In this document: positions 2,025-32,529 of the stretch, piece by piece
Position numbering within the stretch: position 1 is the first letter of the stretch
Layout of the letters: each line of letters starts with the position of its first letter
Virus record (IMG/VR): IMGVR_UViG_3300025288_000013
Span: 32,001 to 96,000 of that record
Reading direction: 5' to 3' (one strand)
Source of the DNA: a virus
Length of the DNA: 64,000 bases
Notes under the pieces: model-generated
The model's database searches: none
The model's input: the letters and a program-made list of their open reading frames with translations, nothing else
Told to the model about the DNA's origin: nothing
Made by a program: the position numbers and the translations under genes

Positions 2025-2351
2025 TTATTTTATTTTATATATAACATCTGATATAACATAATATGTTTTGTCTATCTTTATATGAGTAGGTATTATCAAT
2101 TCATTGTATATGACAACCACAACATTTTTTTGTTTTTCATCAGAATATTCATGTATTATCATTTTCTTTTGTTTGTTTTCTTTTGTAAATGAAGAAAAAA
2201 TAAAAAAAGATTGTTCTCCAAACAAATTTAATGTATCATTTGATACCACTATGCTGCCACCATCTGTCACATAGGTAACGTCATCTGTTTGTTGGGAAAA
2301 TAGCTGTGAGGAAATTATGAGTGTTGAAATTAATGTTATTATTTTTTTCAT
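2025..2351 (-). CDS. hypothetical secreted protein
   Basis: Signal-peptide-like N-terminus MKKIITLISTLIISSQLFSQ. Confidence 0.6.
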   Translation of the reverse strand: MKKIITLISTLIISSQLFSQQTDDVTYVTDGGSIVVSNDTLNLFGEQSFFIFSSFTKENKQKKMIIHEYSDEKQKNVVVVIYNELIIPTHIKIDKTYYVISDVIYKIK

Positions 2352-2812
2352 AAAAATTCTGGGGGTTTATAATTTATGCTTTTTAATATTTTATGATCTG
2401 ACACCCTATATATAACATAGATATTGTGCTTTTCATTAAACCTATAATAAGTTTTTATACCATCTAAACCATATTTATTAACTGATTCAATGGCTTCATC
2501 TATGGTTTTACAAAATTTTGACATATTGCTTTTGTGGACTTTTTCCAGATCTCCAAAAACCATATCAGCTATACCTCTTTCGTGTGCGAAACCAATGATA
2601 ACATATATTAAATCAGCTATGGCATCTCTTTGTTCAATATGATTGTTATTTATTGTCGCCATTGATAATTCGAAAAATTCTTCTTCTATCAAGTCAAGTC
2701 TAAGATTTGTTCTTTCTTCTGACATGTCTGTCAATTTATTGGAAATTGGTTGTTCACCACATTCCATGAATTCTCTTACCATACTAATTAGTTTGTTCAT
2801 TTTATTATTCAA
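2348..2812 (-). CDS. MazG-like / DR2231-type NTP pyrophosphohydrolase
   Basis: LRLDLIEEEFFEL...DAIADLIYVIIG...VHKSNMSK motifs. Confidence 0.8.
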   Translation of the reverse strand: MNNKMNKLISMVREFMECGEQPISNKLTDMSEERTNLRLDLIEEEFFELSMATINNNHIEQRDAIADLIYVIIGFAHERGIADMVFGDLEKVHKSNMSKFCKTIDEAIESVNKYGLDGIKTYYRFNEKHNIYVIYRVSDHKILKSINYKPPEFL

Positions 2813-3654: not shown

Positions 3655-3682
3655 TAAACCCACTTATGTTCATCTTGTTACA
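3655..3682 (-). promoter_or_regulatory. ECF-type promoter TGTAACAA-N15-GTTTA
   Basis: TGTAACAA gatgaacataagtgg GTTTAT upstream of 3628. Confidence 0.75.
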
Positions 3683-3697
3683 TTACAAATATATGTT

Positions 3698-3745
3698 TTT
3701 TTTATTATATGTCGCCTATTTTATAGGGTTGCATTTGTGACAGTT
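3698..3745. repeat. 48-bp direct repeat, copy 1 (38-bp core TATGTCGCCTATTTTATAGGGTTGCATTTGTGACAGTT)
   Basis: Identical to 6481-6528; the core also occurs at 62486-62523. Confidence 0.95.
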
Positions 3746-6443
3746 AAACTATGTCGTTGCTGTTCTTGACTTTTATTGTTTTATTTAACCTTTGGTTTAT
3801 TTTTTCCAAAGACGAACCATTGTCGGAAACAGACGAATTTATATTCGTCAAAAGAGTTGACAAATTTTCTATGGCTGACAGAAGTTTAGTGCTGCCATTG
3901 GCGTCACCATTGTCTGAAACCAACGGTTGATCTGACGGTTGATCTGACGGTGCTTTGTCCACTTCTGGTATGTTTATACCATTAACAGAGCCAATCACTT
4001 CGTGTGTTACTTCGTTTATGTTTTTGTTTTGTAATTCTAATGATTTGACCCCACCAAGATTTTCCATAGCCGATGTTAGTAAATCAAATTTTTCTATGGT
4101 ATCTTTATCAAGTGTATTCAAAACAGATATGGTTTCACCAAGATTTTTGTTGAACAGCGGTAAACTTTTTGAAAACTTTGATAATGGATCAGCCATCATT
4201 TTCAATTTTACTATTGATTCGATCTCGATCAATTTCAAGCCATTCTGTAGACCAGCAAACATATAACTTATTGATAAGCCCAAATCCTTTGCATCGCTGC
4301 CTGTTTCAGATGAAGATGATAATGATGATATCAAATCAGATACAGTTTTTAGTGGGGCTGATAAATCATTAACCAAACCTATGCCCTTTTCTATGTCACC
4401 ACCACCCCAATCAAAGAATCCATCTGTTTCAGAATCAGCCCTACCAACAGATGCAAACAATGATGGTATAACATCTAAAATTGATGCTATGTTTGTTCTA
4501 ACTGTGCCTATATCAAAATCAATAACTTGCCAGGCTTTTATGCCATCTGCCAAGTCTATCAAATTTTTTCCTAAACCCATTGTAGAACTTATACCCTTTT
4601 CTACATCGCCTTGACCCCAACCAAAAAAACTTTCACCTGCTTCATCTTCTCTGCCAACAGATGCAAACAATGATGGTATAACATCTAAAATAGATTTAAC
4701 ATTTGTTCTAACCAAATTTATATCAAAATCGATGGTTTCCCACGCCTTTATGCCGTCTGCTAATTTTATCAGGTTTTCACCCATATCCATTGTAGAACTT
4801 ATACCCTTTTCTACATCGCCTTGACCCCAACCAAAAAATCCTTCGCCAGCTTCATCGCTTTTGCCAATTTCTGAAAATATGAATGGCAACGTGTTTAACA
4901 CCGTTGATACGTTGTCTTTAACTAATTCGATATCAAATGTTAAACTCTCCCATGCCTTTATGCCGTCTGCTAATTTGTGCAAATTCTCGCCCAAATCCAT
5001 AGTCGCATCTATACCATCTTCAACATCATCCCAATCAATCCCATCCTGTGAAAAAGCTTCAGCAAACGAACTTATCGAATAATTAAATTCGTCTGCATTT
5101 TCTCTTGACCACCCACCAGCATCTTTGTATGTTTCCATACCATAACCAAGAGTGGATAAAGCTAAAGCCATTGATAATATGGCTGGTATTTTAAATGGTA
5201 TTGTTAGTGTATCCTTTAGACTTATCTGATTAAATCCACCCGTTATACCAGATATTATGTTAGAAAATTTGTCCCCCTCAAAATCGCCAACCTCATTTAA
5301 TTTTTTTAATCCAAATGATAGTGGTATCAAAGAAGCACCAACCGCAGCGAACGCCAAAGCACCCAATACCATAAACCCAGCCACCACCGGTATACCAGCT
5401 AATGCATATACACCACCAAGTGCAGTTAACATAATTGGTAGTTTCCACAGCATATCACTATTGTCTTTCATAACGTCTGAAATTGTTTGTAGTGGTGACG
5501 ATATTATCCACAAAGATATACCAATTGCAGCAAATGCCAGTGACCCAAGCAATATGTTTTTTGCAAATTCTCCTGCTATACCAAAAATAATGGCTGTGCC
5601 ACCAAGTGCCAACGCTAATAATCCCAAGTTAGCCAATCCAACGTCTGCCACATTGTTGGACGATATACCTAACATATAGCTAAAAGCCAATAATGATAAT
5701 CCCATACCAAACACTGAAAGCGATCCTTTATTTATGTTATCATTGTGTTCCCCAATCAATGAAAAAACTATGGCTGACAACGCCATAAAACCAAATGCAG
5801 CCATAAGTCCGATTATACCACTACCAGACAAAGTTGTACCAAGTATTAGTGCAGATAGCCCCAAAGAGCCACTAAATGCCAGTAAACCTATACCAACACT
5901 TTTTAGTGCATCACCACCCCTATCCATACTATCCAATGTTTCTGGCGTTAGAAAAGAAAAAGCTTTTGATAATGACCACATTATTGGTATTAATAAAAAT
6001 GAACCAATAGCAGAAATGGATAATAGGGGTGTTGCGATACCTATTAGTGCAGCAGTACCCAATATACCTTTCGTTGCTGTTGATAAATCATTTAGCGATT
6101 GTATCTTGTCTTTGTCCAAATCAACCTTGTTTATAGCGTTGCTTATTGATGATATTGTAGAAGTTAATGATTCTGAATTTACAGAGAGTGATTTTGAATC
6201 TATGTCGCTTATTGATTTAACTAAATCTATTATTGATTTACTTTTTTCCTTGTCTAAACCATTTATAGATTCTATCATAGATTCTACTGAACCCGATGAA
6301 AGCGGTGAACCAACTTGACTTGGTTGGCTGCCCTGTGGTTGTTCGTTTGGTTTAGAAGACACGAATTGTTCAAGAATATTATTTAACGCATCATTTGTTT
6401 TTGATGTTTCTTCAACAATTCTTTCTAATAAGTCTATATACAT
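3744..6443 (-). CDS. tape-measure-like protein with a hydrophobic Gly/Ala-rich segment and 70-aa repeats
   Basis: 899 aa; 210-nt periodic repeats at 4381, 4591, 4801 and 5011; Trp/Phe-spaced helical repeats. Confidence 0.55.
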   Translation of the reverse strand: MYIDLLERIVEETSKTNDALNNILEQFVSSKPNEQPQGSQPSQVGSPLSSGSVESMIESINGLDKEKSKSIIDLVKSISDIDSKSLSVNSESLTSTISSISNAINKVDLDKDKIQSLNDLSTATKGILGTAALIGIATPLLSISAIGSFLLIPIMWSLSKAFSFLTPETLDSMDRGGDALKSVGIGLLAFSGSLGLSALILGTTLSGSGIIGLMAAFGFMALSAIVFSLIGEHNDNINKGSLSVFGMGLSLLAFSYMLGISSNNVADVGLANLGLLALALGGTAIIFGIAGEFAKNILLGSLAFAAIGISLWIISSPLQTISDVMKDNSDMLWKLPIMLTALGGVYALAGIPVVAGFMVLGALAFAAVGASLIPLSFGLKKLNEVGDFEGDKFSNIISGITGGFNQISLKDTLTIPFKIPAILSMALALSTLGYGMETYKDAGGWSRENADEFNYSISSFAEAFSQDGIDWDDVEDGIDATMDLGENLHKLADGIKAWESLTFDIELVKDNVSTVLNTLPFIFSEIGKSDEAGEGFFGWGQGDVEKGISSTMDMGENLIKLADGIKAWETIDFDINLVRTNVKSILDVIPSLFASVGREDEAGESFFGWGQGDVEKGISSTMGLGKNLIDLADGIKAWQVIDFDIGTVRTNIASILDVIPSLFASVGRADSETDGFFDWGGGDIEKGIGLVNDLSAPLKTVSDLISSLSSSSETGSDAKDLGLSISYMFAGLQNGLKLIEIESIVKLKMMADPLSKFSKSLPLFNKNLGETISVLNTLDKDTIEKFDLLTSAMENLGGVKSLELQNKNINEVTHEVIGSVNGINIPEVDKAPSDQPSDQPLVSDNGDANGSTKLLSAIENLSTLLTNINSSVSDNGSSLEKINQRLNKTIKVKNSNDIV

Positions 6444-6556: not shown

Positions 6557-6584
6557 TGTAACAAGATTATTTATAAAATGTTTA
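6557..6584 (+). promoter_or_regulatory. ECF-type promoter TGTAACAA-N15-GTTTA
   Basis: TGTAACAA gattatttataaaat GTTTAT upstream of the guanylate kinase gene. Confidence 0.75.
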
Positions 6585-6602: not shown

Positions 6603-7262
6603 ATGATAAAAAAAGAAAAAATAAGATTTGGTCTTGAAAGAATAACCAATACGCATTGTTTTATAAAAACTTATATAAATGGCGTTATAGAATATGCAAA
6701 TGTTTCTGATGGTATTTCTAGTGGGTTCAACTTTATACCAGAGGAAGAGTATGATACAATAAATCACTATTTTGTTGAAAAGAAAATTGTTCTTGTTGGC
6801 GGAGGTGCTTGTGGTAAGGATTATTACAAAGATTATATGATTGGCGTTGGGTTGATACCGGACATATCGTACACAACAAGACAAAAAAGACAAAAAGAAG
6901 TTGATGGAGTATCATATAATTATATATCAAGAGAAAAATTTGAAAGCATGATTGTTGGAGCAGAATTTTTGCAATGGAACAAATTTGGAAATGACAATTA
7001 TTATGGTACTACAAAAGAATCATTTAAAAGCAGTGATATCTTTATAATGACACCAAATGTTCTTAATTGTATGGATAACAGTGTTAGAGAAAAATTTTTT
7101 GTCATATTTTTCGACATAGACGAAGGCTTAAGAAGAGAGAGGCTTAAGAAGAGAGGTTATTCAGATAAAGATTGTGAAAAAAGATTTGATATAGATAAAA
7201 AAACCTTTGATAATTTTAATAGCTTTGATATGGTTGTAACAAATCCAAATTTTATACCTTAG
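6603..7262 (+). CDS. gmk: guanylate kinase-like protein
   Basis: P-loop GGGACGKD; SYTTRQKRQKEVDGVSYNYIS; YYGT. Confidence 0.85.
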   Translation: MIKKEKIRFGLERITNTHCFIKTYINGVIEYANVSDGISSGFNFIPEEEYDTINHYFVEKKIVLVGGGACGKDYYKDYMIGVGLIPDISYTTRQKRQKEVDGVSYNYISREKFESMIVGAEFLQWNKFGNDNYYGTTKESFKSSDIFIMTPNVLNCMDNSVREKFFVIFFDIDEGLRRERLKKRGYSDKDCEKRFDIDKKTFDNFNSFDMVVTNPNFIP

Positions 7263-8737
7263 TCTGGCTTGAAATTAGATTCTATTGCTCTTGGGTTATT
7301 ATTTATGTCTTGTGCATCGTCTATTATATAAGCTAAACTTGGTTTTTCAACCATCGTTTTGCTCATTAATCTTGCTGTTATTTCTTTTGGCACCACCTTT
7401 TTGAAAATTCTTATCATACCTATATCGTGGTCACCAAACATCAGGCTAACACTACCAAGTTCTATTGTTTTTGGTCTAATTATGTTATCATCATATGTGA
7501 TCTGTTTAAAAACATTCTCTACTTTTTCCAGTATTTGTATAGAATTCAAGTGATCCGATATGTTTATTGCTACATAAATTTTTTTGTCGTTTGGTATAAT
7601 TATGTTTGTATTTCTACCGAAAATTACCATTTTGTTGTCAATGATTTCTATATAACCATTGCCTATTTTTATCAACCTCGTATCAGAGTAAATTCTTGTG
7701 TGGAAAACAATACCAAATTCTTTATTTGTTATTTTATTTATATACTTAACAGATTCACCATCACCACCAAACATTGTGTACCCATCAGAATTAAACACAA
7801 CACCCTCAATGACTTCTTCTCTACTCATATCTCTATATATTTGTGGTGACATGTTTTGTCTTAAGTTTATGTGGTCTTCTTCTTCATTGTTGAACTCCTC
7901 TCTGAATATATCATCATCTATATCAATATTCTCATGTAACCCATCGTTTTTGTTCAGAACTGATTTGTCATCGACATAATTCCCAAAAGTGAGATTCCAA
8001 AATGTTGGTTTGCCATTTATTCCTCTTTGTAAAATTGAACTCTCAACAACATACATACTGTTTGTTTGTTTTATATATATATAATCACCATCAAATGGTT
8101 TTTCACCATTACCAAAAATTGATTGGAAGTAATAATAGTCAATTTGTGCATCAAAGGTGTTGAACTCTGCCCCCCACTCACTTATAACTATTTCATCTAT
8201 TTTTGGTAATTCGTTGTCTTCTGTTATTAAATTTAGCTCTTTTTGTTCCACAAATTCTTTTTCTGCGTACTCTTTAAATCTATTATCTTGCGACATTGGC
8301 TTTATTCTGTTATATAGAACACATGTTATACCGTCATTAGCATTTATAAAGGAGTTTAAGTCCCTTTCTATTTTTTCTGCCAGAATGCCAAATTTGTGTA
8401 ATCCTATATTGTTTGTAAATTTAAAATCACTGAATTCTTTTGTCGGTAAGACATTTTTATATTTTATGATAAACCCAATAATTTTATCAACATTTGATGT
8501 GTTTTTTATGTAGAGTTTTATGCTATCTGGCGAACCGATTGAGTTTATTTTGTCTATGTTATTTTCTTTAGATATTTTGTTGTTTGTTGTTTCAGAAAAT
8601 GTGAATAATATATCATTATCATAACCATCTGTGAACTTTATGTTGAAATCAGTGATACTGAAATCAAACTTTATATTAATGGTTTCAAGTCTGTTTGGAC
8701 CAATTGTTATTTCTTTTGTTATTATTTCTATATCCAT
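7259..8737 (-). CDS. neck protein, T4 gp14-like, with extra domains (start probably 8737; ORF track starts at 8758)
   Basis: SEWGAEFNTFDAQID...GEKPFDGDYIYIKQTNSMYVVE resembles gp14 (FG...P.EGDLIYF...LFEI); late box at 8777-8784. Confidence 0.55.
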   Translation of the reverse strand: MDIEIITKEITIGPNRLETINIKFDFSITDFNIKFTDGYDNDILFTFSETTNNKISKENNIDKINSIGSPDSIKLYIKNTSNVDKIIGFIIKYKNVLPTKEFSDFKFTNNIGLHKFGILAEKIERDLNSFINANDGITCVLYNRIKPMSQDNRFKEYAEKEFVEQKELNLITEDNELPKIDEIVISEWGAEFNTFDAQIDYYYFQSIFGNGEKPFDGDYIYIKQTNSMYVVESSILQRGINGKPTFWNLTFGNYVDDKSVLNKNDGLHENIDIDDDIFREEFNNEEEDHINLRQNMSPQIYRDMSREEVIEGVVFNSDGYTMFGGDGESVKYINKITNKEFGIVFHTRIYSDTRLIKIGNGYIEIIDNKMVIFGRNTNIIIPNDKKIYVAINISDHLNSIQILEKVENVFKQITYDDNIIRPKTIELGSVSLMFGDHDIGMIRIFKKVVPKEITARLMSKTMVEKPSLAYIIDDAQDINNNPRAIESNFKPD

Positions 8738-8740
8738 TTT

Positions 8741-8768
8741 TGTAACAAAATAAATCATTTACAGTTAA
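8741..8768 (+). promoter_or_regulatory. ECF-type promoter (variant -10 GTTAA)
   Basis: TGTAACAA aataaatcatttaca GTTAAT upstream of 8786. Confidence 0.55.
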
Positions 8769-9256: not shown

Positions 9257-10135
9257 ATGATACCATATAACCTAACAAAGGGTAATTGCAAGCCCAAAAA
9301 TAAATCAAACATATTCAGATTTATATCTGGCGGCATATTAAATTTATCAGAAGAGTTGTTTTTTGATTTATCAGAATCAGATATGTTTATATGTAGTAGC
9401 ACAAGGCAGAAAATAAAATTAGATCCGAAACAAGTTGTGAGAATCGATTGCAATTTCATAGCATTACATGATAAATGTGACAATTTTTTATTGGCAAACG
9501 CCATAAAAAATAGGACAAACGACTCCAGAATAGAGGTTAGTATAACCTCTATCGTTAATGATAATGTGGAGGATTTCTCTCTTGATATTGTTTATGAAAA
9601 CATGTTAGATGAAAATGTTTATAATTGGTCTAATTTTGATAATCAACCATATAATTATTCTATAACCAATTGGGATGAAATTGTTGGATCATGGAGTTTT
9701 TATTCTACCATTAATTCTACCACCAATATAATAATGTTTAAAGATTTTACAATTTCTGGCTATGAGTTTCAGGTTGTTAATGGTGCTGACACAATTTTTT
9801 ATGTTGAAAAAATAGAAAACAACAGTAGAATGGTTCTTGAACTTAAATACTCATCTGGGTTAATAACACTGATATCAATATCAATTAATGGCAGATTTGT
9901 CGTTGATGAAACAAAAATAGTTTATGGTTTAACTGATCAAACCAATTCAAATAGCGAGGTATTTTTTAGATATGTTAGTGTTTTTGATGAAATCATAAAG
10001 CATTTTGTATCACATTCTCTTAATAAAAAAGAATACTATATCTATAATCACAATGATTCATCAACAACAATAGATTCACTTAGTGGAACTTTGTGTGAAG
10101 ACGAAGATTTATTGTTGGATTCTGATTGTTTGTAA
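9257..10135 (+). CDS. hypothetical, probably virion protein
   Basis: ORF preceded by ATAAATAA (9235-9242). Confidence 0.55.
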   Translation: MIPYNLTKGNCKPKNKSNIFRFISGGILNLSEELFFDLSESDMFICSSTRQKIKLDPKQVVRIDCNFIALHDKCDNFLLANAIKNRTNDSRIEVSITSIVNDNVEDFSLDIVYENMLDENVYNWSNFDNQPYNYSITNWDEIVGSWSFYSTINSTTNIIMFKDFTISGYEFQVVNGADTIFYVEKIENNSRMVLELKYSSGLITLISISINGRFVVDETKIVYGLTDQTNSNSEVFFRYVSVFDEIIKHFVSHSLNKKEYYIYNHNDSSTTIDSLSGTLCEDEDLLLDSDCL

Positions 10136-10549: not shown

Positions 10550-10583
10550 AAAAGCCTATGGTAAAAATATCATAGGCTTTTTT
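10550..10583 (+). terminator. intrinsic terminator
   Basis: AAAAGCCTATG-loop-CATAGGCTTTTTT. Confidence 0.85.
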
Positions 10584-10610
10584 GTAACAATCTATTCATA
10601 AAACAGTTTA
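10583..10610 (+). promoter_or_regulatory. ECF-type promoter; the primase mRNA is probably near-leaderless
   Basis: TGTAACAA tctattcataaaaca GTTTAT; the GTTTA box ends 6 nt before ATG 10617. Confidence 0.75.
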
Positions 10611-10616
10611 TAACAT

Positions 10617-11666
10617 ATGTTAAACTTACAAATAGATTTCACAAAACATGATACTGAAAATGTTGTAAAAATATCAACAGATAACATAAGAAAAGAAATC
10701 GAAAGCATATTATTAAGGGTTCACACACAATCACAAAAACAAGAAGTTGTTGATAGGGATGGCGGTTTCAATATAGCTTGTCCCTTTTGTGGTGATTCAA
10801 AAGATAACCCAAACAAAAAAAGAGGAAACATATATTTGGACACAAACACGTTCAAATGCTACAATTGTACAATATGGATGCCTCTTGAGGAATTTTTCCT
10901 AAAATTCAACTCTGATGTTGGTTTTAAAATAGCCAAGTTTGATCTTGAAAATTTTGTGTCCAAAACAAAAACAAAAATTTCGTTGTATGATATATATGAT
11001 ATAGGCAACCAATACATAGAAAGAGGGTCACTAATGAAAGAAATGAAATTGAAAAATATAGTAGACGATTATAAGACGGCAAAATATTTGGAAAGTAGAA
11101 AGATAGATATAAATGATAGAAGATTGGCTGTTAATAGTTTTTCAAGAAGTATAGTATTTTTTAATATGCATGATGATAAGGTCATAGGTTTACAAAAAAG
11201 AATACATGAGCCAACAAATGGCAACAGATTCATATCATATGATTATGGTAGCATAATGGAAAAAATTATTAAAAGTGATTATGACAAAGATAGAGCCTTA
11301 AAGATAAAACGCATATCGTTACTGTATAACATATTAAATGTTGATTTTTCTAAGAAAATTAACACATTCGAATCATCAATAGACAGCCATCATTTTACTA
11401 ACAGCATTGCGTGTTGGGGTTCAAATTCCATACTTAAATTACCAAATTGTCAGTATGGCATGGATGATGACGTTGCCGGTAGGAAAGCGTCTATAAAATT
11501 ATTAAAATCTGGCTATAAAGTGTTCATGTGGGGTGAGTTCAAACATAACAATACAATTTATCGTAATTGCAAAGATTTTAATGACATATTTAAATTAAAA
11601 CCAATAAGCCAAAAAACATTTGAAAGTTATTTAACAGATTCAGAATTAGACATAATATCATTATGA
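10617..11666 (+). CDS. DNA primase, T4 gp61-like
   Basis: Zn finger CPFCGDS...KKRG...FKCYNC; TOPRIM FESSIDS...DDDVAG...KDFND. Confidence 0.9.
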   Translation: MLNLQIDFTKHDTENVVKISTDNIRKEIESILLRVHTQSQKQEVVDRDGGFNIACPFCGDSKDNPNKKRGNIYLDTNTFKCYNCTIWMPLEEFFLKFNSDVGFKIAKFDLENFVSKTKTKISLYDIYDIGNQYIERGSLMKEMKLKNIVDDYKTAKYLESRKIDINDRRLAVNSFSRSIVFFNMHDDKVIGLQKRIHEPTNGNRFISYDYGSIMEKIIKSDYDKDRALKIKRISLLYNILNVDFSKKINTFESSIDSHHFTNSIACWGSNSILKLPNCQYGMDDDVAGRKASIKLLKSGYKVFMWGEFKHNNTIYRNCKDFNDIFKLKPISQKTFESYLTDSELDIISL

Positions 11667-12256
11667 AAAAAACAATAATATTCGACACAGAAACAACAGG
11701 CATTGTGCCAAAAGGTATGATGTACAAAGACCCAAATTATCCAAGATTATTACAACTTGCATGGGTAATATTAGATGAAGATGGGAACGAATTAGACAAA
11801 AGAAAAAACTATATAAAACCGAATGGGTTTTTAGTACCAAACACAGAATTTCACAAAGCAAATGGTTTGACACAAGAGGTGTGTGACAAAGGTGAAAACC
11901 CAATAGACGAATTGAATTTTTTGCTTGATGCTATTGAAAAATCAGAAGTTTTGTTGGCACATAATATGTTATTTGATTATTTTATAATAGCTTCAGAATT
12001 ACACAAAAACAACATAATTAGGAAAATAGAAAGGAAACCTAAGTATTGTACAATGATGTCAACAATAGATTTTTGCCAACTACCGTCACCATATGGAAGA
12101 GGATTTAAATTTCCTCGTTTGGAAGAACTTTATAAAAAATTGTTCAACGAAACTTTTGAAAATGCACATGATGCGTTTGCTGATGTAAAGGCTACCGCAA
12201 GATGCTATGTTGAATTAAATAGACTTGGTGTACCAATAAAAGAAGTATTAAAATGA
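11663..12256 (+). CDS. DEDDh 3'-5' exonuclease (DnaQ-like)
   Basis: FDTETTG, AHNMLFD, AHDAFADV. Confidence 0.9.
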   Translation: MKKTIIFDTETTGIVPKGMMYKDPNYPRLLQLAWVILDEDGNELDKRKNYIKPNGFLVPNTEFHKANGLTQEVCDKGENPIDELNFLLDAIEKSEVLLAHNMLFDYFIIASELHKNNIIRKIERKPKYCTMMSTIDFCQLPSPYGRGFKFPRLEELYKKLFNETFENAHDAFADVKATARCYVELNRLGVPIKEVLK

Positions 12257-12624
12257 GAGTACCAGGAACCAACATAATAGTTGAACAAAATAGCGATCCA
12301 AATAAGGTTATTGGTAATATCATATTTGATCATAGCAAGAAATATACAAAAAATATGGGTGTTGTTAAATACCTTAGTAAGTTTTGTGAAACAAATCGTG
12401 GAACAATTTGTGATATAAATATTGGCGATATAGTTCACTTTTCTGATGAAGCTGGTGTATATATTGACAAAAAAAACATGAAAAACATTCTATTGATAGA
12501 TTACAGAGAAATAATACTAATATCTGAATCAGAAGAAAACGAAATTTTTGTTGGCGAGGACATGAGATTTTATTTAGAAGAGGACATAGCAAACAGACAA
12601 ATGGAAAAAACATCTAATAATTAA
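12253..12624 (+). CDS. GroES-like co-chaperonin
   Basis: MRVPGTNIIVE...GVVKYL...INIGDIVHFSDEAG...LLIDYREII. Confidence 0.6.
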   Translation: MRVPGTNIIVEQNSDPNKVIGNIIFDHSKKYTKNMGVVKYLSKFCETNRGTICDINIGDIVHFSDEAGVYIDKKNMKNILLIDYREIILISESEENEIFVGEDMRFYLEEDIANRQMEKTSNN

Positions 12625-12635
12625 ACAAACACAAA

Positions 12636-13919
12636 ATGAAACAAACAAAACGAACAAAAACGAACAATTTCTTTAAAAATGGTAAAATATCATTTGTAAT
12701 GGATGGTGCAGCTGGTAGTTCAGGCAAAAGCTTAATATCGTCGTATTTAGTGAAACATGCTAACAATGTTGATTTTATATTATCAGCCTTTACGCCAAAC
12801 GCAAGTCACACAGTTATAGATGATGATGGCAAAGAATTTGTTTTTAAAATTTTTGCAGGTGGTTCACAATACCACGAAAAACTAAAAGCTGTTTATATAA
12901 CAGATAATGCTGCAATAGAGTTAAAAACTCTGTGGAAAGAGATTGACTATCTTGGTATACCAAAAGAAAAGGTTAGAATTTCTCCAATGTGCATGATAGT
13001 TCAACAAATAGACATTGATTATGAAGCTGGACTGTGTGATCTTGATGGAAATTATTATTCAAAGAACGAGTTGAGGGATGGTACTGTTAAAACAGGGAGC
13101 ACTTGTTCTGGTAGTGGCACTGTTTTGGCTAAAAAGGTTCTTAGAAATAAGACACTGGTAAAAGCCAAAGATGTTGAAGAACTGAAAGAGTTTTTGTATG
13201 AAATGGATGAAATAATTTCAAGACTTGAAACAGGTGATAGAGGTTTAATGGAAATGGCACAAGGGTTTCCATTGTCAGTGAATCATCACATGTTTGCACC
13301 GCATACAACAAGTAGAAATGTTACAGTTACTAATGCTATGAATGATGCTATGATACCACCAAGATTTGCTGGTAACGTTTTAATCAACTTTAGAACGTAT
13401 CCAATCAAAATTCATAGTAATAAGTATAAATGTAACAAAACCGGTAAGTTTCTTACATGGGATGAGGTGAACAAGATGAAGACTGATATTGATTATGTTG
13501 TTGTTGAATCAAATTCTGGCGACTTTTATCCTGATCAAACAGAAATGAGTTGGGATCAAATAACCAAAGAATCTGGGTCTGAAAAGAAACTCATGGAATG
13601 CACAACACTTACAAAATTACCAAGAAGAATAGCTTCATTTAGTAAACAAAATCTTGTAGAGGCAATTAGATTCAATGACACAGGTGGTCAAATTTGGTTA
13701 TGTGTTAATTTTGTTAATTATGTTGTTTCTGGAATCTATGGTGAAAGGGAGTATTTTAACTTACACATTGACTTTGAAAAATATGAAAAACTTCACAATT
13801 GGATTCATGAAAACATAACCAGAGTTATATATGCAGACAATTCTATAGACGAAACAAGAGTTTCTCTTAAATATCTTGGTACAGGTGAAAAAATCGAAGA
13901 TAGAATAGAAATGCCATAA
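12636..13919 (+). CDS. purZ: PurZ, N6-succino-2-amino-2'-deoxyadenylate synthase (PurA paralogue)
   Basis: GAAGSSGK (Ser at the PurA Asp13 position), NASHT, GSTCSG, EMAQGF, TSR, RTYPI, NSG, TTLTKLPRR, NFVNY (in place of TKLD). Confidence 0.8.
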   Translation: MKQTKRTKTNNFFKNGKISFVMDGAAGSSGKSLISSYLVKHANNVDFILSAFTPNASHTVIDDDGKEFVFKIFAGGSQYHEKLKAVYITDNAAIELKTLWKEIDYLGIPKEKVRISPMCMIVQQIDIDYEAGLCDLDGNYYSKNELRDGTVKTGSTCSGSGTVLAKKVLRNKTLVKAKDVEELKEFLYEMDEIISRLETGDRGLMEMAQGFPLSVNHHMFAPHTTSRNVTVTNAMNDAMIPPRFAGNVLINFRTYPIKIHSNKYKCNKTGKFLTWDEVNKMKTDIDYVVVESNSGDFYPDQTEMSWDQITKESGSEKKLMECTTLTKLPRRIASFSKQNLVEAIRFNDTGGQIWLCVNFVNYVVSGIYGEREYFNLHIDFEKYEKLHNWIHENITRVIYADNSIDETRVSLKYLGTGEKIEDRIEMP

Positions 13920-13979: not shown

Positions 13980-15773
13980 ATGAGCGTTGTTGTAAATGAG
14001 CGTTGGTCAACAAAAAGAATTGATGAACTTATAAAGAATTTCAATAAAATTGGCGTTATACCAGACAAGCATCCATTCTTTAATAGAAAAATAGGTAAAA
14101 GGAAAGGTGAAATCAACTTCAGTTGGACACAAGAAGAACTTTTAGAATTATCAAGATGTGAAAATGATATAGTTTACTTCGCAAATACTTTTTGTAAAAT
14201 TCTTACTGATGGTCACGGAAGACAATTTTTAAAAGATGTTGGCGGTATAAGAGATTATCAGGAAGATCTTTTAAAAATGTTTCAGGACAGCCAATTCAAC
14301 ATTGTTTTGGCTTCAAGACAAATTGGTAAGTCTATTACAGTTGCTATATATGTGTGTTGGTATTTGTTGTTTAATGATGATGCTAACATACTTCTTTTAT
14401 CAGAAACAGGTACAAAAGCAAAAGATTTACTTAAAAAGATAAAAGACATACAGGACAACTTACCATTTTACATGCAAGTTGGTTTATTATATGATTCAAC
14501 ACAACGAAGAATTTATGATAATGGTTGCACACTTATTAGTGAAAACACAACAGAAAATAGCGGTGTTTCTGGGTCGTATCAATTCGTTTATTGGGATGAA
14601 ATGGCATTATTAGACGCACCAACACAAGAAAAGATTTTTACTGGTGTATTCCCAACAATGGCAAGTTTTGGTAATAAAGCCAAGTTTATTATAACAAGCA
14701 CACCAAGAGGAAGAAACAATAAATTTCATAACATATGGAACGGTGCTACAAGTGAACTAGATTCACCAGAATATGTGCCGTTTTCATATGCAAAGGTCAT
14801 GTGGCATCAGGTCAAGGGTAGGGGTGAAGAATGGGAAAGAAAAGAAAGGAAAATAATGGGGGATGATGGTTTTGATAGAGAGTATGGATTATCTTTTGAT
14901 GCTGATGGCGATTTGCTTATAAGTGACGAAAATAAAAAGAAAATAAGCAGCAATTTTGTTAAATATGTAAGATATGAAAAAGATCACAAATTTTACAAAT
15001 TATTCAGTCATCACCCAGATTTCAAAGTATCCATGTTATCTGATCCAGAAAGAAAATTTCATATATCAATCGACATAGCTGGTGGAAAGAAGAGAGATTA
15101 TACTGTGTTTAATATATTTGAATTGAAATTCAAATCTTATGATGAAATAAAAGATATGGATTTTATCGTTGACGAAATGGACTTCTTTAAATTAGAACAA
15201 GTTGCTATAATAAGAAGTAATGTTATAAAAACAGAAATAATGGCTATGTACCTTTATGACTTTATCATAAAGTATATGATTCCACATAATATTAGAATAA
15301 CCATAGAAATTAATTTTGAGGGCAAGTTTTTTCTAAAGAATTTGTTTGATTATAAAGGTAGAAAGAATGAACTTAATAATTCAAGAGAAGATATGATTGT
15401 AGAATATCCACTGAACATGAATTTTGATAAAGACAATGCCATATATGAATTTGGAATAGTTCAAAACGAAAAAACTAAACAAGATACATGCAAGACCATA
15501 AACACGGTTATTCGTGACAACCATATTGTTATAAACCACAGTGTAACTGTTGAGGAGGGTTTGGCGTTTGGCTTGAACAAAAAAGGCAAATATCAAGGTT
15601 TATCAAAAAACGATGATTGCTTCATGACTGTTTTGAATATAGCAAATTATAAAAAAACAGATGAATATGAAGAGCAGGTTAATGAAATAATAAATAATTT
15701 GGATTCTTATCAATTAGAACTAATAAGCAAAATAGTTGGTGAAGATGATGAAGAAGATGATGACATATATTAA
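13980..15773 (+). CDS. terL: terminase large subunit, T4 gp17-like
   Basis: RDYQ; Walker A SRQIGKS; Walker B VYWDE; ITSTPRG; nuclease DIAGG...DYT; NDD. Confidence 0.95.
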   Translation: MSVVVNERWSTKRIDELIKNFNKIGVIPDKHPFFNRKIGKRKGEINFSWTQEELLELSRCENDIVYFANTFCKILTDGHGRQFLKDVGGIRDYQEDLLKMFQDSQFNIVLASRQIGKSITVAIYVCWYLLFNDDANILLLSETGTKAKDLLKKIKDIQDNLPFYMQVGLLYDSTQRRIYDNGCTLISENTTENSGVSGSYQFVYWDEMALLDAPTQEKIFTGVFPTMASFGNKAKFIITSTPRGRNNKFHNIWNGATSELDSPEYVPFSYAKVMWHQVKGRGEEWERKERKIMGDDGFDREYGLSFDADGDLLISDENKKKISSNFVKYVRYEKDHKFYKLFSHHPDFKVSMLSDPERKFHISIDIAGGKKRDYTVFNIFELKFKSYDEIKDMDFIVDEMDFFKLEQVAIIRSNVIKTEIMAMYLYDFIIKYMIPHNIRITIEINFEGKFFLKNLFDYKGRKNELNNSREDMIVEYPLNMNFDKDNAIYEFGIVQNEKTKQDTCKTINTVIRDNHIVINHSVTVEEGLAFGLNKKGKYQGLSKNDDCFMTVLNIANYKKTDEYEEQVNEIINNLDSYQLELISKIVGEDDEEDDDIY

Positions 15774-15801
15774 TGTAACAAAAGTTAATATTGTGGGTTT
15801 T
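15774..15801 (+). promoter_or_regulatory. ECF-type promoter
   Basis: TGTAACAA aagttaatattgtgg GTTTTT upstream of 15837. Confidence 0.7.
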
Positions 15802-29334: not shown

Positions 29335-32300
29335 TTAATCTTTTAATAATTCATCAGCTAGATCACCAATGCCTTTTATCAACGGATTGTTTTCAAATGC
29401 TTTAACGATTTTATCTTTCTTTTCTTTCAAATCATCAATAGCCAATTTTATCTTTTCTTTAGCTGTTGGGTCTTCTTCACCAGCCAATTCTTTCTTTAAA
29501 TCTTCTATTTCTTTGTCAAGTTTTAACTTATCTTCAAGATTTTTTATAACCAACTCCTCTTTTTCTATATTAGTTTTTAACTTTTCAATAGATTCTTCAT
29601 TGGTTTCATCAGCTAATTTTTGTTTAAGTTCAAGTATATCTTCTTTTGATTCTTTGATTCTTTGTTCAATTTTAACCAATTTTTCCTCACGTTTTTTAAC
29701 TGCCTCTGAATCTTCTGCCTCTGTTAATTCTTTATTTTCAAATACCATACTTGCTAATTCCTTGTATCTATCAACGTTACCAAAAATGATATCATAATTA
29801 CCAAGTTGTTCAGGTTTCACCCAAGCATATTCAGAATGTTCTTCTGACAAAACAACCTCTTCACTATTTGATAAACCAGAATAATAGTGGGAAACGCTAC
29901 CATCATTTGTGAATTCTTTTAATCGCTTCACATCGCTAAATGTTAGCCCAGATTCCTCATTTGCCTCACGAATAGCAGCTTCTTCAGTTGTTTCACCGTC
30001 TTCAACTTTACCACCAGCTAAACCCCATTGGTTCGGTGCAACTTCTTCATCAACTGTTCTTTTTAATAACAAAAGTTCGCCCTTATCATTATAAATGACC
30101 ATATCAGCATAAGTTTTTATCTCTCCAACACCATTTTCATTTTCAACTAATTTCTTTAATATACCACTTATTTTTGTTTGACACGATTCAGTTAATTTAC
30201 CAAATTTGGTTGACGAACCCTCTTTCATTTCTATTAACGCATCATATACTTCGTTAACATCTTCGTTTTCTGATAATTCTGATATGAGTTGTAAATCTTC
30301 ATCGTCTAATTGATTAACAATTTCAATTTCTGATACAATTTCTGTTGGTTCAACGATTTCGTTTTCTACCAATGGCGTCTTAAAAATCACGCCAGTCATT
30401 GTGTCGTAATCCCATATACCAATAAAGTTACCATCTTGGTCTTTAAACCAATCTTGGTCACCTCTTGATTCTATGCTACCATCACCAACATAAGATAAAC
30501 CTTGTGAAAATGAATTAAAGTTATCATATTTGTCACCACCAAGTTTTGATATGTCTTTAAATGATTCAGTCAATTTTGCTGATTCTAATACCTTATGTTT
30601 TTTTAATAATTCAATATCATCAACAGTCACAGGAAACCCAAATCCGTCACTTAATGTTTTCATAAGTTTCTTTTCATTACTTGCAGCATCAGTAACTTGT
30701 GGTATCAGTTTACCATACTGATCAAGTATTGCTTTGTCTGTGTTGGTTCCATCTTCAAACCCCCCCAAAACCTTTATAATTTTAAAGCCAATTGAATTCT
30801 TAAGATCACCATCACTTTCAGTTAATTTTGCTGATTCTGTTAGTTCAACAATAACTTCAACATCTTCTTTATCATCATAAATTGATAGAGTTTTGTTTTC
30901 AACATCAAAATCCAATTCAAAATCGCCAAAGTCTGATCGCCATGATTCTTTCGTACCATATTTTTTGAATAACGATTTTATACCATCAATATCTTTTTTC
31001 CCAAAATGTAATCTTGAATTATCATCTTCAATTGATGAATTTTTTTCTATATGTTTTATAATTTTATCAATTGGTGTTGATTCACTTTCAGTTAATTTTG
31101 ATTCAACAAATCTCAAATCTGAAGATGGCACATTAAGTTTGTTTTCATTTTCTATTTCTAGTTCATTTTCAGTTAACTTGTTTATTGGTGTTACAGAATA
31201 TTTGTTTTCATCTATGGCAAATACGTCATAATCTTTACCATCAACTCCTAATTGTACACCTGCACTACCGTTTATTGGTGTCCCCAATATCATTGATAAT
31301 TCAGAACCACTAAACATTTTTTTGACCTTATCTTTATCAACAACAATTTCTTTACTTTCAGTTAACTTTTTTGGTTTAAAATGAATTGGGTGTGCCTTTT
31401 CCTTAGTATTTTTATCAATTATCCAATTATCTTTAGTTATTTCACCGATTTCAAACGGTTCACCAAGAACTGTACCAACATCACCAACTTTTAAACCACG
31501 TCCTTTGATATTGGTTTCTCTTTGGTGATTATCAGCATAGCCCTCATTCAAAACCGTTAAATAATCAAATGCTATTGTTTCTACACCAAGAAATTTTCCA
31601 TTTTTGTCAAACACAGACACATCAACATCATAATCGTTTTGACCAGTTTTATCAAGTCTATCAACAATACCATAATAATCTGGATATTTTTTATCACCTA
31701 TAAGAATTTTAACTTTGTCATTAACTTTTGGTAATACTGCTTCAGTTAGTTTATCTACACCGTTCACTTCAACATCACCAATTTTATAAGTACCATTTTC
31801 TTTCAGTGCTTTTATAATTTTGTTGCTTTCAACAAGCATAACAAATTTACCTTTTTGTATTTTGGCTGCTTCCGTTAGTCCAACCACTTCAACCACTTCA
31901 GATATAGTCATTTCATTTTCATTATCTAAGTTTGATAAAATCTGTGCAACAGTTGAATCATTGCTCATTTCTAAATGTTGATAAATGTGATCTCTGAATT
32001 CTGGTTTGTATTCGAAATCACCATCATTATATATGATGTTGTGTAAAATTCCTATTTGATTTTCATCAAGTACATTGTACACCAAATTTTTTATGTCTGT
32101 TGGATCGATCCCATCATTTTCTTTCAGTTTGTATTGTTCAGACATTTTTACCATACCATCAACAAAATGGTCAACTGCTTCGTCATTTTTTATATTTGTT
32201 TTATCAATTTGTATACCATCCTCATTTATAGAAAACCCATCAAACATATAACAACAACTTGCTATGTGTTTACAAACATCATTTATATAACTGTTAAGAT

Positions 32301-32529
32301 TGGCTTCATCGAGATTGATTTCTTTTCCACCAGCCTGTTCGTTAATTTTAACTATCATTTCTGGTGTCAAGTCTTGACATTTAACAAGATGATCAACCTT
32401 TGATTCATCAACATCTCTTATGGTTTCTTTGTCCAAATAATATTTAGCAACACCATTGTTAGCAAAATTTTCTTCTACTATTGATTTACCAAATGATTCC
32501 AATAATTTTACAGTTATCTTTTTGTTCAT
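29335..32529 (-). CDS. large acidic protein with a NUDIX hydrolase domain and repeated (K)LTE motifs; putative internal head polyprotein
   Basis: Nudix box GGKVEDGETTEEAAIREANEESG; about ten LTE(S/A/N) motifs; late box at 32551-32558. Confidence 0.7.
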   Translation of the reverse strand: MNKKITVKLLESFGKSIVEENFANNGVAKYYLDKETIRDVDESKVDHLVKCQDLTPEMIVKINEQAGGKEINLDEANLNSYINDVCKHIASCCYMFDGFSINEDGIQIDKTNIKNDEAVDHFVDGMVKMSEQYKLKENDGIDPTDIKNLVYNVLDENQIGILHNIIYNDGDFEYKPEFRDHIYQHLEMSNDSTVAQILSNLDNENEMTISEVVEVVGLTEAAKIQKGKFVMLVESNKIIKALKENGTYKIGDVEVNGVDKLTEAVLPKVNDKVKILIGDKKYPDYYGIVDRLDKTGQNDYDVDVSVFDKNGKFLGVETIAFDYLTVLNEGYADNHQRETNIKGRGLKVGDVGTVLGEPFEIGEITKDNWIIDKNTKEKAHPIHFKPKKLTESKEIVVDKDKVKKMFSGSELSMILGTPINGSAGVQLGVDGKDYDVFAIDENKYSVTPINKLTENELEIENENKLNVPSSDLRFVESKLTESESTPIDKIIKHIEKNSSIEDDNSRLHFGKKDIDGIKSLFKKYGTKESWRSDFGDFELDFDVENKTLSIYDDKEDVEVIVELTESAKLTESDGDLKNSIGFKIIKVLGGFEDGTNTDKAILDQYGKLIPQVTDAASNEKKLMKTLSDGFGFPVTVDDIELLKKHKVLESAKLTESFKDISKLGGDKYDNFNSFSQGLSYVGDGSIESRGDQDWFKDQDGNFIGIWDYDTMTGVIFKTPLVENEIVEPTEIVSEIEIVNQLDDEDLQLISELSENEDVNEVYDALIEMKEGSSTKFGKLTESCQTKISGILKKLVENENGVGEIKTYADMVIYNDKGELLLLKRTVDEEVAPNQWGLAGGKVEDGETTEEAAIREANEESGLTFSDVKRLKEFTNDGSVSHYYSGLSNSEEVVLSEEHSEYAWVKPEQLGNYDIIFGNVDRYKELASMVFENKELTEAEDSEAVKKREEKLVKIEQRIKESKEDILELKQKLADETNEESIEKLKTNIEKEELVIKNLEDKLKLDKEIEDLKKELAGEEDPTAKEKIKLAIDDLKEKKDKIVKAFENNPLIKGIGDLADELLKD

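Follow-up and report, generated by a model that had tools for sequence, protein, structure and literature searches.

This study was concerned with a synthase gene at positions 12,636 to 13,919 (+ strand) of a 64,000-nucleotide stretch of viral DNA, referred to here as the window, which spans positions 32,001 to 96,000 of IMG/VR record IMGVR_UViG_3300025288_000013. The predicted product is a PurZ-like homologue of succino-(amino)deoxyadenylate synthase and belongs to a group of longer homologues, designated here the long clade. The enzyme is PurZ-like and not PurA-like because it has an invariant Ser and an ATP-type pocket, because PurZ enzymes come first in the sequence, profile and fold comparisons, and because its gene is accompanied by others that would fit the same pathway. 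The long clade is well supported and previously undescribed. Judged from sequence, it is probable, with moderate confidence, that these phages turn deoxyguanosine monophosphate (dGMP) into nucleotides of 2-aminoadenine (Z) and that Z enters their DNA, its extent being left aside.

In the literature consulted, Z-DNA is described from siphoviruses and podoviruses of small size whose hosts are Pseudomonadota, Cyanobacteriota and Actinomycetota; these phages use the PolA-type polymerase DpoZ or PrimPol. In the PurZ phages with a worked-out pathway to the triphosphate dZTP (phiVC8, SH-Ab 15497 and S-2L), adenine (A) is completely replaced. Recent surveys recognize seven Z-phage groups with DpoZ, DatZ, MazZ/DUF550 or DutZ/DmtZ in the same three phyla; neither myoviruses nor PurB, guanylate kinase or Flavobacterium appear in them. 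Long-clade members may already stand unremarked in existing PurZ lists. A literature search for a Z-genome myovirus, a Flavobacterium-phage adenylosuccinate synthetase, or dZ monophosphate (dZMP) together with guanylate kinase returned nothing relevant, with most subscription papers outside the search. The phage of the present record is T4-like, large and rich in AT, and its polymerase is of family B, a type different from the DpoZ or PrimPol of known Z phages, both as had been anticipated in an earlier, sequence-only reading of the window. Relatives of this phage also have genes for PurB and a guanylate-kinase-like enzyme, steps for which known Z phages depend on the host, so that Z-DNA probably also occurs in large phages whose DNA polymerase is of another type. 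If this is true, the range of Z-DNA would include T4-like phages of 110-250 kb and a further host phylum, Z genomes could be copied by a family B replisome with proofreading, and phages would have taken over steps of the Z pathway otherwise left to the host. Synthetic ZTGC systems would also gain new enzymes for removing adenine, as well as a candidate kinase for dZMP.

Residues, profiles and fold of the synthase

The synthase gene is an uninterrupted open reading frame (ORF) of 427 aa. Its protein was aligned with PurZ of phiVC8, S-2L, SH-Ab 15497, PMBT28 and vB_OspP_OH, two PurZ0 sequences and E. coli PurA. The sequence-only reading had described a PurA-fold protein from five motifs, all of which are present in this ORF: GAAGSSGK at residues 24-31, NASHT at 55-59, PIKI at 256-259, TTLTKLPRR at 323-331 and NFVNY at 358-362. 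It had also read a Ser in place of the PurA Asp13, a Leu at the Arg303 equivalent and NFVNY in place of the GTP motif, and the alignment bore this out. S28 pairs with phiVC8 S14 (S23 in S-2L), the site of Asp13 in E. coli PurA, and H58 pairs with H43. P256-I257-K258-I259 pairs with phiVC8 P233-I-R-V236, Y298 with Y244, W306 with W252 and T323 with T262. L328 pairs with phiVC8 K267, the Arg303 equivalent (PMC8342488), where Leu is also found in S-2L, SH-Ab 15497 and PMBT28. N358-F359-V360-N361-Y362 pairs with N294-F295-C296-N297-Y298, the ATP-type donor pocket, and no [NT]KxD motif (GTP-type NKxD or TKxD) occurs in the synthase sequence.

The divergence and the insertion of about 30 residues that had been noted earlier were also found. 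About 35 added residues, between I259 and S294, lie at the site of the PurZ-specific insertion. They directly follow I259, which aligns with the Val (V241 in S-2L) that crowds the sugar C2' in PurZ. As judged by alignment, I259, the insertion and the lack of an Arg at the E. coli R303 position are features that would be expected to exclude the 2'-OH. The conserved residues tied to use of dGMP and ATP, in phiVC8 numbering S14, H43, P233, W252, T262, R269/R270, F295, N297 and Y298, were taken from PMC8342488 (Czernecki et al.) and bioRxiv 10.1101/2025.10.22.683976. Further changes relative to phiVC8 are R235 to Lys and GKS in the P-loop.

Family models and structures were then compared. The Pfam model Adenylsucc_synt matches the 427-aa protein at 3.9e-12, and PHROG 1211, which carries a PurZ annotation, matches it at 1.2e-32. 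The best sequence matches in the PDB were phiVC8 PurZ (1.6e-22) and S-2L PurZ (8e-17), followed by Pyrococcus PurA (7e-14) and, at just 7e-4, E. coli PurA. The AlphaFold (AF2) model of the synthase, built with 25 relatives, had a mean predicted local distance difference test (pLDDT) score of 89.5 and a predicted template modelling (pTM) score of 0.90. Foldseek placed the PurZ structures 6tnh, 6fm1 and 7odx on top for this model and PurZ0 and bacterial PurA lower, so that the order of enzymes equals that of the PDB sequence matches. The top-scoring NCBIfam model was the PurZ model NF038379, which has a curated cut-off of 300 bits; the synthase scored 140 bits, below this cut-off, as compared with 397 for phiVC8, 368 for PurZ0 and 127 for E. 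coli PurA. The runner-up was the archaeal-PurA-type model NF003295, at 103 bits against a cut-off of 368, and the PurA model TIGR00184 gave 49 bits against 395.6. Thus the assignment to PurZ stood as regards the residues and the best sequence, profile and fold matches, but not as regards the NCBI cut-off or a confident placement inside PurZ.

Three kinds of known enzyme are relevant for comparison. PurZ of Vibrio phage phiVC8 (6FM1/6TNH), cyanophage S-2L (7ODX), Acinetobacter phage SH-Ab 15497 and Salmonella phage PMBT28 has the same fold (Foldseek 8.6e-24, TM-score 0.83 on target). It shares with the synthase the Ser at the PurA Asp13 site, the catalytic His of NAxHT, the NFxNY adenine pocket, W252 and Y244, the TT(V/L)TK(L/K) Asp loop, in which the synthase and S-2L both have Leu, and PI(R/K)(V/I) beside the sugar. 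However, the synthase is only about 28% identical to PurZ and has GSSGK instead of GSTGK and NASHT instead of NAGHT. Long-clade enzymes are 60-140 residues longer, mainly owing to the insertion after I259 and a C-terminal extension. PurZ0 of the Wayne-like Arthrobacter and Microbacterium phages (7VF6) is also a Ser-bearing phage PurA homologue and was a fold match at 4.2e-19, but its signature sites, GSEAK and TMLDQ, are unlike those of the synthase, and the NCBI PurZ model gives it 368 bits, compared with 140 for the synthase. PurZ0 reportedly uses GTP. Archaeal PurA retains the catalytic Asp. The archaeal short PurA of Pyrococcus horikoshii (5K7X/2D7U) was the next sequence and fold match after PurZ; it binds IMP (inosine monophosphate) and GTP, 5K7X being the complex with GTP, IMP and hadacidin, whereas the synthase has the Ser and an ATP-type pocket.

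Extent and placement of the long clade

A word-index search returned 243 clusters (90% identity) at E <= 1e-5, the best 120 of which were all below 1e-93, and an exhaustive search of 1.84 billion representative proteins returned 74 clusters (50% identity) at E <= 1e-30. Among the best 150 matches, the Asp13 column, where scorable, held Ser, rarely Gly and never Asp. Residue counts were made for 137 members of at least 395 aa. In phiVC8 numbering, Ser was found at the S14 column in all 136 scorable members, and H43, P233, W252 and R269/R270 were invariant. F295 was conserved in 136 of 137, T262 in 135, N297 in 129 and Y298 in 110. In a 25-sequence sample, 56 columns were invariant, among them those of the P-loop, catalytic His and Asp loop. 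Members measure 400-480 aa; their insertion varies in length and can reach about 100 residues. The viral contigs that carry them are as long as 256 kb. The curated PurZ models miss this entire clade.

Independently assembled groundwater and hot-spring metagenomes contain the synthase gene in intact form, with M207I and a single silent substitution as the only differences. That the gene is a PurA relic in decay or without function, for which nothing speaks besides the divergence from curated models, is highly improbable in view of these near-identical copies in independent samples, the more than 240 clusters at 90% identity, the 56 invariant columns of the 25-sequence sample and the confident fold.

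In several metagenomic homologues of 750-850 aa (P0129, P0131, P0133, P0136, P0145, P0146 and P0236), LAGLIDADG inteins interrupt the gene at three or more insertion sites. The presence of inteins in several homologues suggests a gene that phages cannot lose.

In the maximum-likelihood tree, for which E. coli PurA was the sole outgroup, the synthase fell within a 19-row clade with an SH-aLRT (Shimodaira-Hasegawa-like approximate likelihood ratio test) support of 100, apart from a 30-row clade that holds every characterized PurZ. This quick tree nested the 19-row clade among PurZ, after the split of PurZ0 (SH-aLRT 89). This nesting was dropped, as the approximately unbiased (AU) test shows that the placement is insecure. 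Since the AU test did not reject a placement outside PurZ and PurZ0, a function shared by descent is not secured. The phylogenetic comparison with PurZ and PurZ0 that had been proposed for the window thus yielded a supported separate clade, but not its position relative to those two families. On the basis of the tree and AU results and the NCBI PurZ score, the clade forms a separate, deeply branching group of Ser-type enzymes that does not belong to the curated PurZ family.

Candidate pathway enzymes and a proposed route to Z

The fold, the diagnostic residues, membership in the clade, the neighbouring genes and the co-occurrence of genes are observations. From them a route to Z can be proposed, in which every substrate and every function given to an accessory enzyme is predicted, as are the occurrence of Z in the DNA and its share there. 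First, a MazG/HisE-type pyrophosphohydrolase would probably feed dGMP to the pathway. Secondly, the PurZ-type enzyme would convert dGMP, aspartate and ATP to the succino-aminodeoxyadenylate intermediate (dSMP). Third, adenylosuccinate lyase (PurB), which is phage-encoded in many relatives, would release dZMP; for the present phage this enzyme might be supplied by the host or lie within the missing third of the genome. A guanylate-kinase-like enzyme of a Gln-bearing type would then phosphorylate dZMP to the diphosphate dZDP, the host nucleoside diphosphate kinase would form dZTP, and the T4-type family B polymerase would insert Z opposite T. Lastly, an HD_3 hydrolase and an adenosine-deaminase homologue are candidate drains of adenine deoxynucleotides.

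The candidate MazZ-like dGMP supplier is a protein of the MazG/HisE superfamily of NTP pyrophosphohydrolases encoded at 2348-2812 (- strand). It matches Pfam PRA-PH at 1.2e-11 (45 bits, above the cut-off of 21; 6.4e-13 in a six-frame scan) and weakly matches the MazG-like protein DR2231 in the PDB, and it has no BLAST similarity to MaF61 ORF62 or phiVC8 p26. A search for mazZ and DUF550 had been suggested for this genome; it gave this protein, but not DUF550.

The candidate dZMP kinase is encoded at 6603-7262 (+ strand) and matches Pfam Guanylate_kin at 5.9e-15, TIGR03263 at 68 bits (under the cut-off) and guanylate kinases in the PDB at 2.7e-11. The guanine contacts in human GMP kinase are S37, E72, T83 and D103 (PMC12297293). 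The window kinase has Gln instead of the Glu that binds guanine (human E72), as seen in FLQWNKF versus E. coli FLEHAEV, and I-MTP instead of the Asp pair of LDID, a pair that is lost in the kinases of long-clade phages. Gln was found at this site in 13 of 17 kinases of long-clade phages (L101-L114, L007 and the window) versus 1 of 6 phage kinases from phages without a PurZ hit. As a lead, not a result, the Gln amide may serve as hydrogen-bond donor toward N1 of Z (or A), which is unprotonated, and as acceptor for the 2-amino group; such amide chemistry would suit a dZMP kinase. Two kinase copies are found in record G018, one with Gln and one with Glu. In the phage collection MaF61 was the second match to the kinase, and the other best matches were unannotated uncultured phages of 460-640 kb (LR756500, LR756502, LR756504 and LR745206); of the two examined, one has Glu at this site and one has Ala.

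Co-occurrence was assessed in 40 IMG/VR records with the long clade, eight of which are at least 90% complete. PurB was found in 17 of the 40 records and 6 of the 8 near-complete ones, Guanylate_kin in 14 and 7, MazG in 13 and 6, and A_deaminase in 11 and 3, respectively. In the phage collection of 50,697 records, homologues of the kinase were found in 25 records and homologues of PurB in 14. Since both are rare there, their association with the long clade is strong. Several of the 14 PurB records resemble short bacterial fragments, and Streptomyces phage Galactica has an annotated PurB-like gene. In L040 (151.6 kb, with terminal repeats) the PurZ-like gene, PurB (Lyase_1 and ASL_C) and MazG lie within 6 kb, and the order PurZ-like, PurB, MazG, TerL is contained in 8 kb. 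The closest relative, L007 (64% identity), has PurB, an 894-aa gene, Gmk and PurZ within 8.5 kb; its gene order matches that of the window, except that PurB is without a counterpart in the window.

An alternative is that the synthase and PurB form an auxiliary adenine route (IMP to AMP, or dIMP to dAMP), which would supply more A for a 70% AT genome whose DNA is canonical. PurB suits the synthesis of AMP just as well as that of dZMP, the genome is very AT-rich, and an adenosine-deaminase homologue would yield inosine compounds. In addition, the curated PurZ cut-off was failed, the clade may branch outside PurZ and PurZ0, and the base pocket is altered by Ala at the F12 site. This route is nevertheless considered unlikely, as Asp13, catalytic in every PurA, is an invariant Ser in the clade, the GTP motif is missing and the ATP-type NFxNY is present, and the PurA models are far below their cut-offs (49 vs 395 bits and 103 vs 368). 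Also, little would be gained for raising A from a kinase derived from guanylate kinase, from a MazG-type enzyme or from a deaminase that breaks down adenosine.

Formation of Z nucleotides remains the preferred reading. A datZ gene had been sought on the suggestion of the sequence-only reading, and no orthologue was found. What was found is an HD_3/YfbR-like hydrolase, outside the window at G000:C1:5257-5955 (+ strand; HD_3 2.8e-8), next to the clamp loader. It matches phrog_7076, annotated as dATP triphosphohydrolase, at 3.8e-4, and the PHROGs name its family dNMP phosphatase. This protein shares the Pfam families of DatZ but is 19% identical to phiVC8 DatZ (three-sequence MAFFT alignment) and has RYNG where DatZ has the W20/I22 motif. 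Its nearest solved structure is Atu1052 (2GZ4), and it is conserved in MaF61 as ORF97. The adenosine-deaminase homologue is intact and lies about 19.9 kb before the window at G000:C1:11115-12116 (+ strand; A_deaminase 2.9e-45); TIGR01430 gave 159 bits, under its cut-off. BLAST of phiVC8 DatZ, p26 and DpoZ, and of MaF61 PurB, MazG-like protein, ThyA, DHFR and RNR, against the record returned no match. The models PF01966 (HD) and PF03819 (MazG) gave no match in six-frame scans of the record, yet HD_3 and PRA-PH, which are narrower or sister models, match real ORFs; thus negative family scans depend on the model used.

A further alternative, of which the sequence-only reading had warned in naming partial substitution or a different base, is that the enzyme acts on another 6-oxopurine, such as ribo-GMP or XMP (xanthosine monophosphate), or that Z nucleotides are made without wholesale replacement, for example for substitution that is only partial or local, for a purine that is modified further or to poison the replication of the host. 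The divergent pocket (F12A, P144K, G256T, PIKI and the larger insertion) is consistent with this, as are the lack of a recognized dATP-exclusion enzyme in the record, a proofreading family B polymerase, and the occurrence of the clade in both PolB and PolA phages. On the other hand, I259 and the insertion lie where PurZ excludes the 2'-OH, phiVC8, SH-Ab 15497 and S-2L replace A completely, and the HD_3 and adenosine-deaminase genes are a plausible alternative route of A removal. This alternative is regarded as somewhat unlikely.

Several findings weigh against the conversion of dGMP to Z nucleotides and their entry into DNA. First, the 140 bits of the synthase on the NCBI PurZ model (cut-off 300) are scarcely more than the 127 bits of E. 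coli PurA, and the AU test slightly favours a long clade outside PurZ and PurZ0 (20 log-likelihood units better, p-AU 0.64). Secondly, at the position of phiVC8 F12, a residue lining the 2-amino pocket, Ala is found in the synthase and in 91 of 137 clade members, and P144 and G256 (phiVC8 numbering) are replaced by Lys and Thr in the synthase. Third, no DatZ orthologue was found by BLASTP and profile searches of the 110-kb record, which is 64% complete, and scans of the same record for DUF550 (PF04447) and dUTPase (PF00692) were negative. PurB (PF00206) was found neither in the record nor at the position that it occupies in L007, and the accessory genes of the record are dispersed and unclustered. 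In addition, one phage without a PurZ hit also has Gln at the kinase site. Lastly, the paper on MaF61 makes no mention of modified DNA (PMC13269007).

Compared with the datZ-mazZ-purZ cluster of known Z phages, the record likewise combines in one genome a PurZ-type enzyme, a MazG/HisE-fold pyrophosphohydrolase and an HD-type hydrolase, and in relatives the PurZ-like gene and MazG are neighbours as in that cluster. Unlike those phages, the record has no DatZ orthologue, DUF550 or DpoZ, and its genes are dispersed. What the clade brings in addition is PurB and an altered guanylate kinase, precisely the steps that the published Z pathway leaves to the host, and often an adenosine-deaminase homologue. 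Known PurZ carriers are sipho- and podoviruses of 40-60 kb with DpoZ or PrimPol, whereas long-clade carriers have genomes of at least 110-256 kb with PolB, or in some cases PolA. A more specific proposal, put forward tentatively as a possibility of lower probability, is that a widespread group of large T4-like PolB phages, probably of Bacteroidota and including MaF61, replaces A by Z through a largely self-contained pathway. It would comprise a third deep PurZ-type lineage, a phage PurB, a Glu-to-Gln dZMP kinase and the exclusion of A by a new route of HD_3 nucleotidase and adenosine deaminase in place of DatZ.

Gene block, promoter-like motif and phage record

The IMG/VR record is 110,222 bp long, is estimated to be 64% complete and has a GC content of 29.9%. 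The synthase gene stands in a co-oriented block opened by the primase gene, in agreement with its earlier description as part of a primase operon. The block consists of DNA primase (10617-11666, + strand; phrog_47 3.7e-13, 34% identity to MaF61 ORF118), a DnaQ/RNase T-type 3'-5' exonuclease (11663-12256, + strand; RNase_T 1.2e-14), a Cpn10/GroES-like protein directly 5' of the synthase gene (12253-12624, + strand; Cpn10 2.1e-5), the synthase, and the T4-type large terminase TerL directly 3' of it (13980-15773, + strand; Terminase_6N 4.1e-13). The junctions between these genes are overlapping or very short.

A promoter-like motif, TGTAACAA-N15-GTT, occurs in 14 copies in the window, as compared with 0.21 expected (positions 3657, 6557, 8741, 10147, 10583, 15774, 29309, 34068, 48136, 53294, 57772, 60182, 62307 and 62570). 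Most copies lie shortly 5' of co-oriented genes. For example, the copy at 10583-10608 (+ strand) lies 9 nt ahead of the primase start and heads the synthase block, and the next + strand copy, at 15774, is right past TerL, with no terminator-like site between the two. The copy at 6557-6582 (+ strand) is 21 nt ahead of the Gmk-like gene, and that at 3657-3682 (- strand) heads a minus-strand block of which the MazG/HisE-like gene is the last. The motif looks like a phage-specific promoter class that would link the synthase block, the kinase gene and the pyrophosphohydrolase block.

The family B polymerase of the record matches PF00136 at 3.3e-29 and phrog_262 at 9e-111, and no match to PolA (PF00476) was found anywhere in the 110 kb. 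The record also encodes a clamp loader, a gp32-like single-stranded DNA-binding protein (SSB) and a baseplate wedge protein. The term T4-like, as used here, refers to these three genes, TerL, PolB and the homology to MaF61; many structural ORFs have no PHROG annotation. Megablast of 22 kb against the phage collection gave no match. The phage was found as assembled contigs in groundwater, aquifer and hot-spring metagenomes, labels that serve only as hints of habitat.

Among the co-occurrence records, PolB was found in 14 of 40 and 7 of the 8 near-complete ones, and PolA in 10 of 41, with the present record added, and none of the 8. Since both PolA and PolB carriers exist, the clade is spread over at least two kinds of large phage. 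A family A polymerase in place of PolB was seen in G011, G022 (L017, L028), G008, G016, G017, G020, G023, G033 and G038, and several PolB carriers have a polymerase divided between two ORFs.

The sole cultured member of the clade is Flavobacterium phage MaF61, which has a genome of 167.8 kb and is a myovirus as judged by electron microscopy (PMC13269007). Since this relative exists in culture, the presence of Z can be tested at once. MaF61 has counterparts to 36 of the 127 ORFs of the record at 23-43% identity, with 43% for the PurZ-like gene. The adjacency of PurZ and TerL is kept in MaF61 (ORF141-ORF142), and TerL is also near PurZ in L040.

Other genes of the window were also noted. A 1063-aa protein (29335-32529, - strand) has a NUDIX hydrolase domain at about residues 786-964 and is homologous to part of MaF61 ORF123. 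Near the kinase gene, large conserved ORFs with no Pfam family are found at 7259-8758 (- strand), 3744-6443 (- strand) and 9257-10135 (+ strand), and the order of the 899-aa and 499-aa ORFs near this gene is retained in L007.

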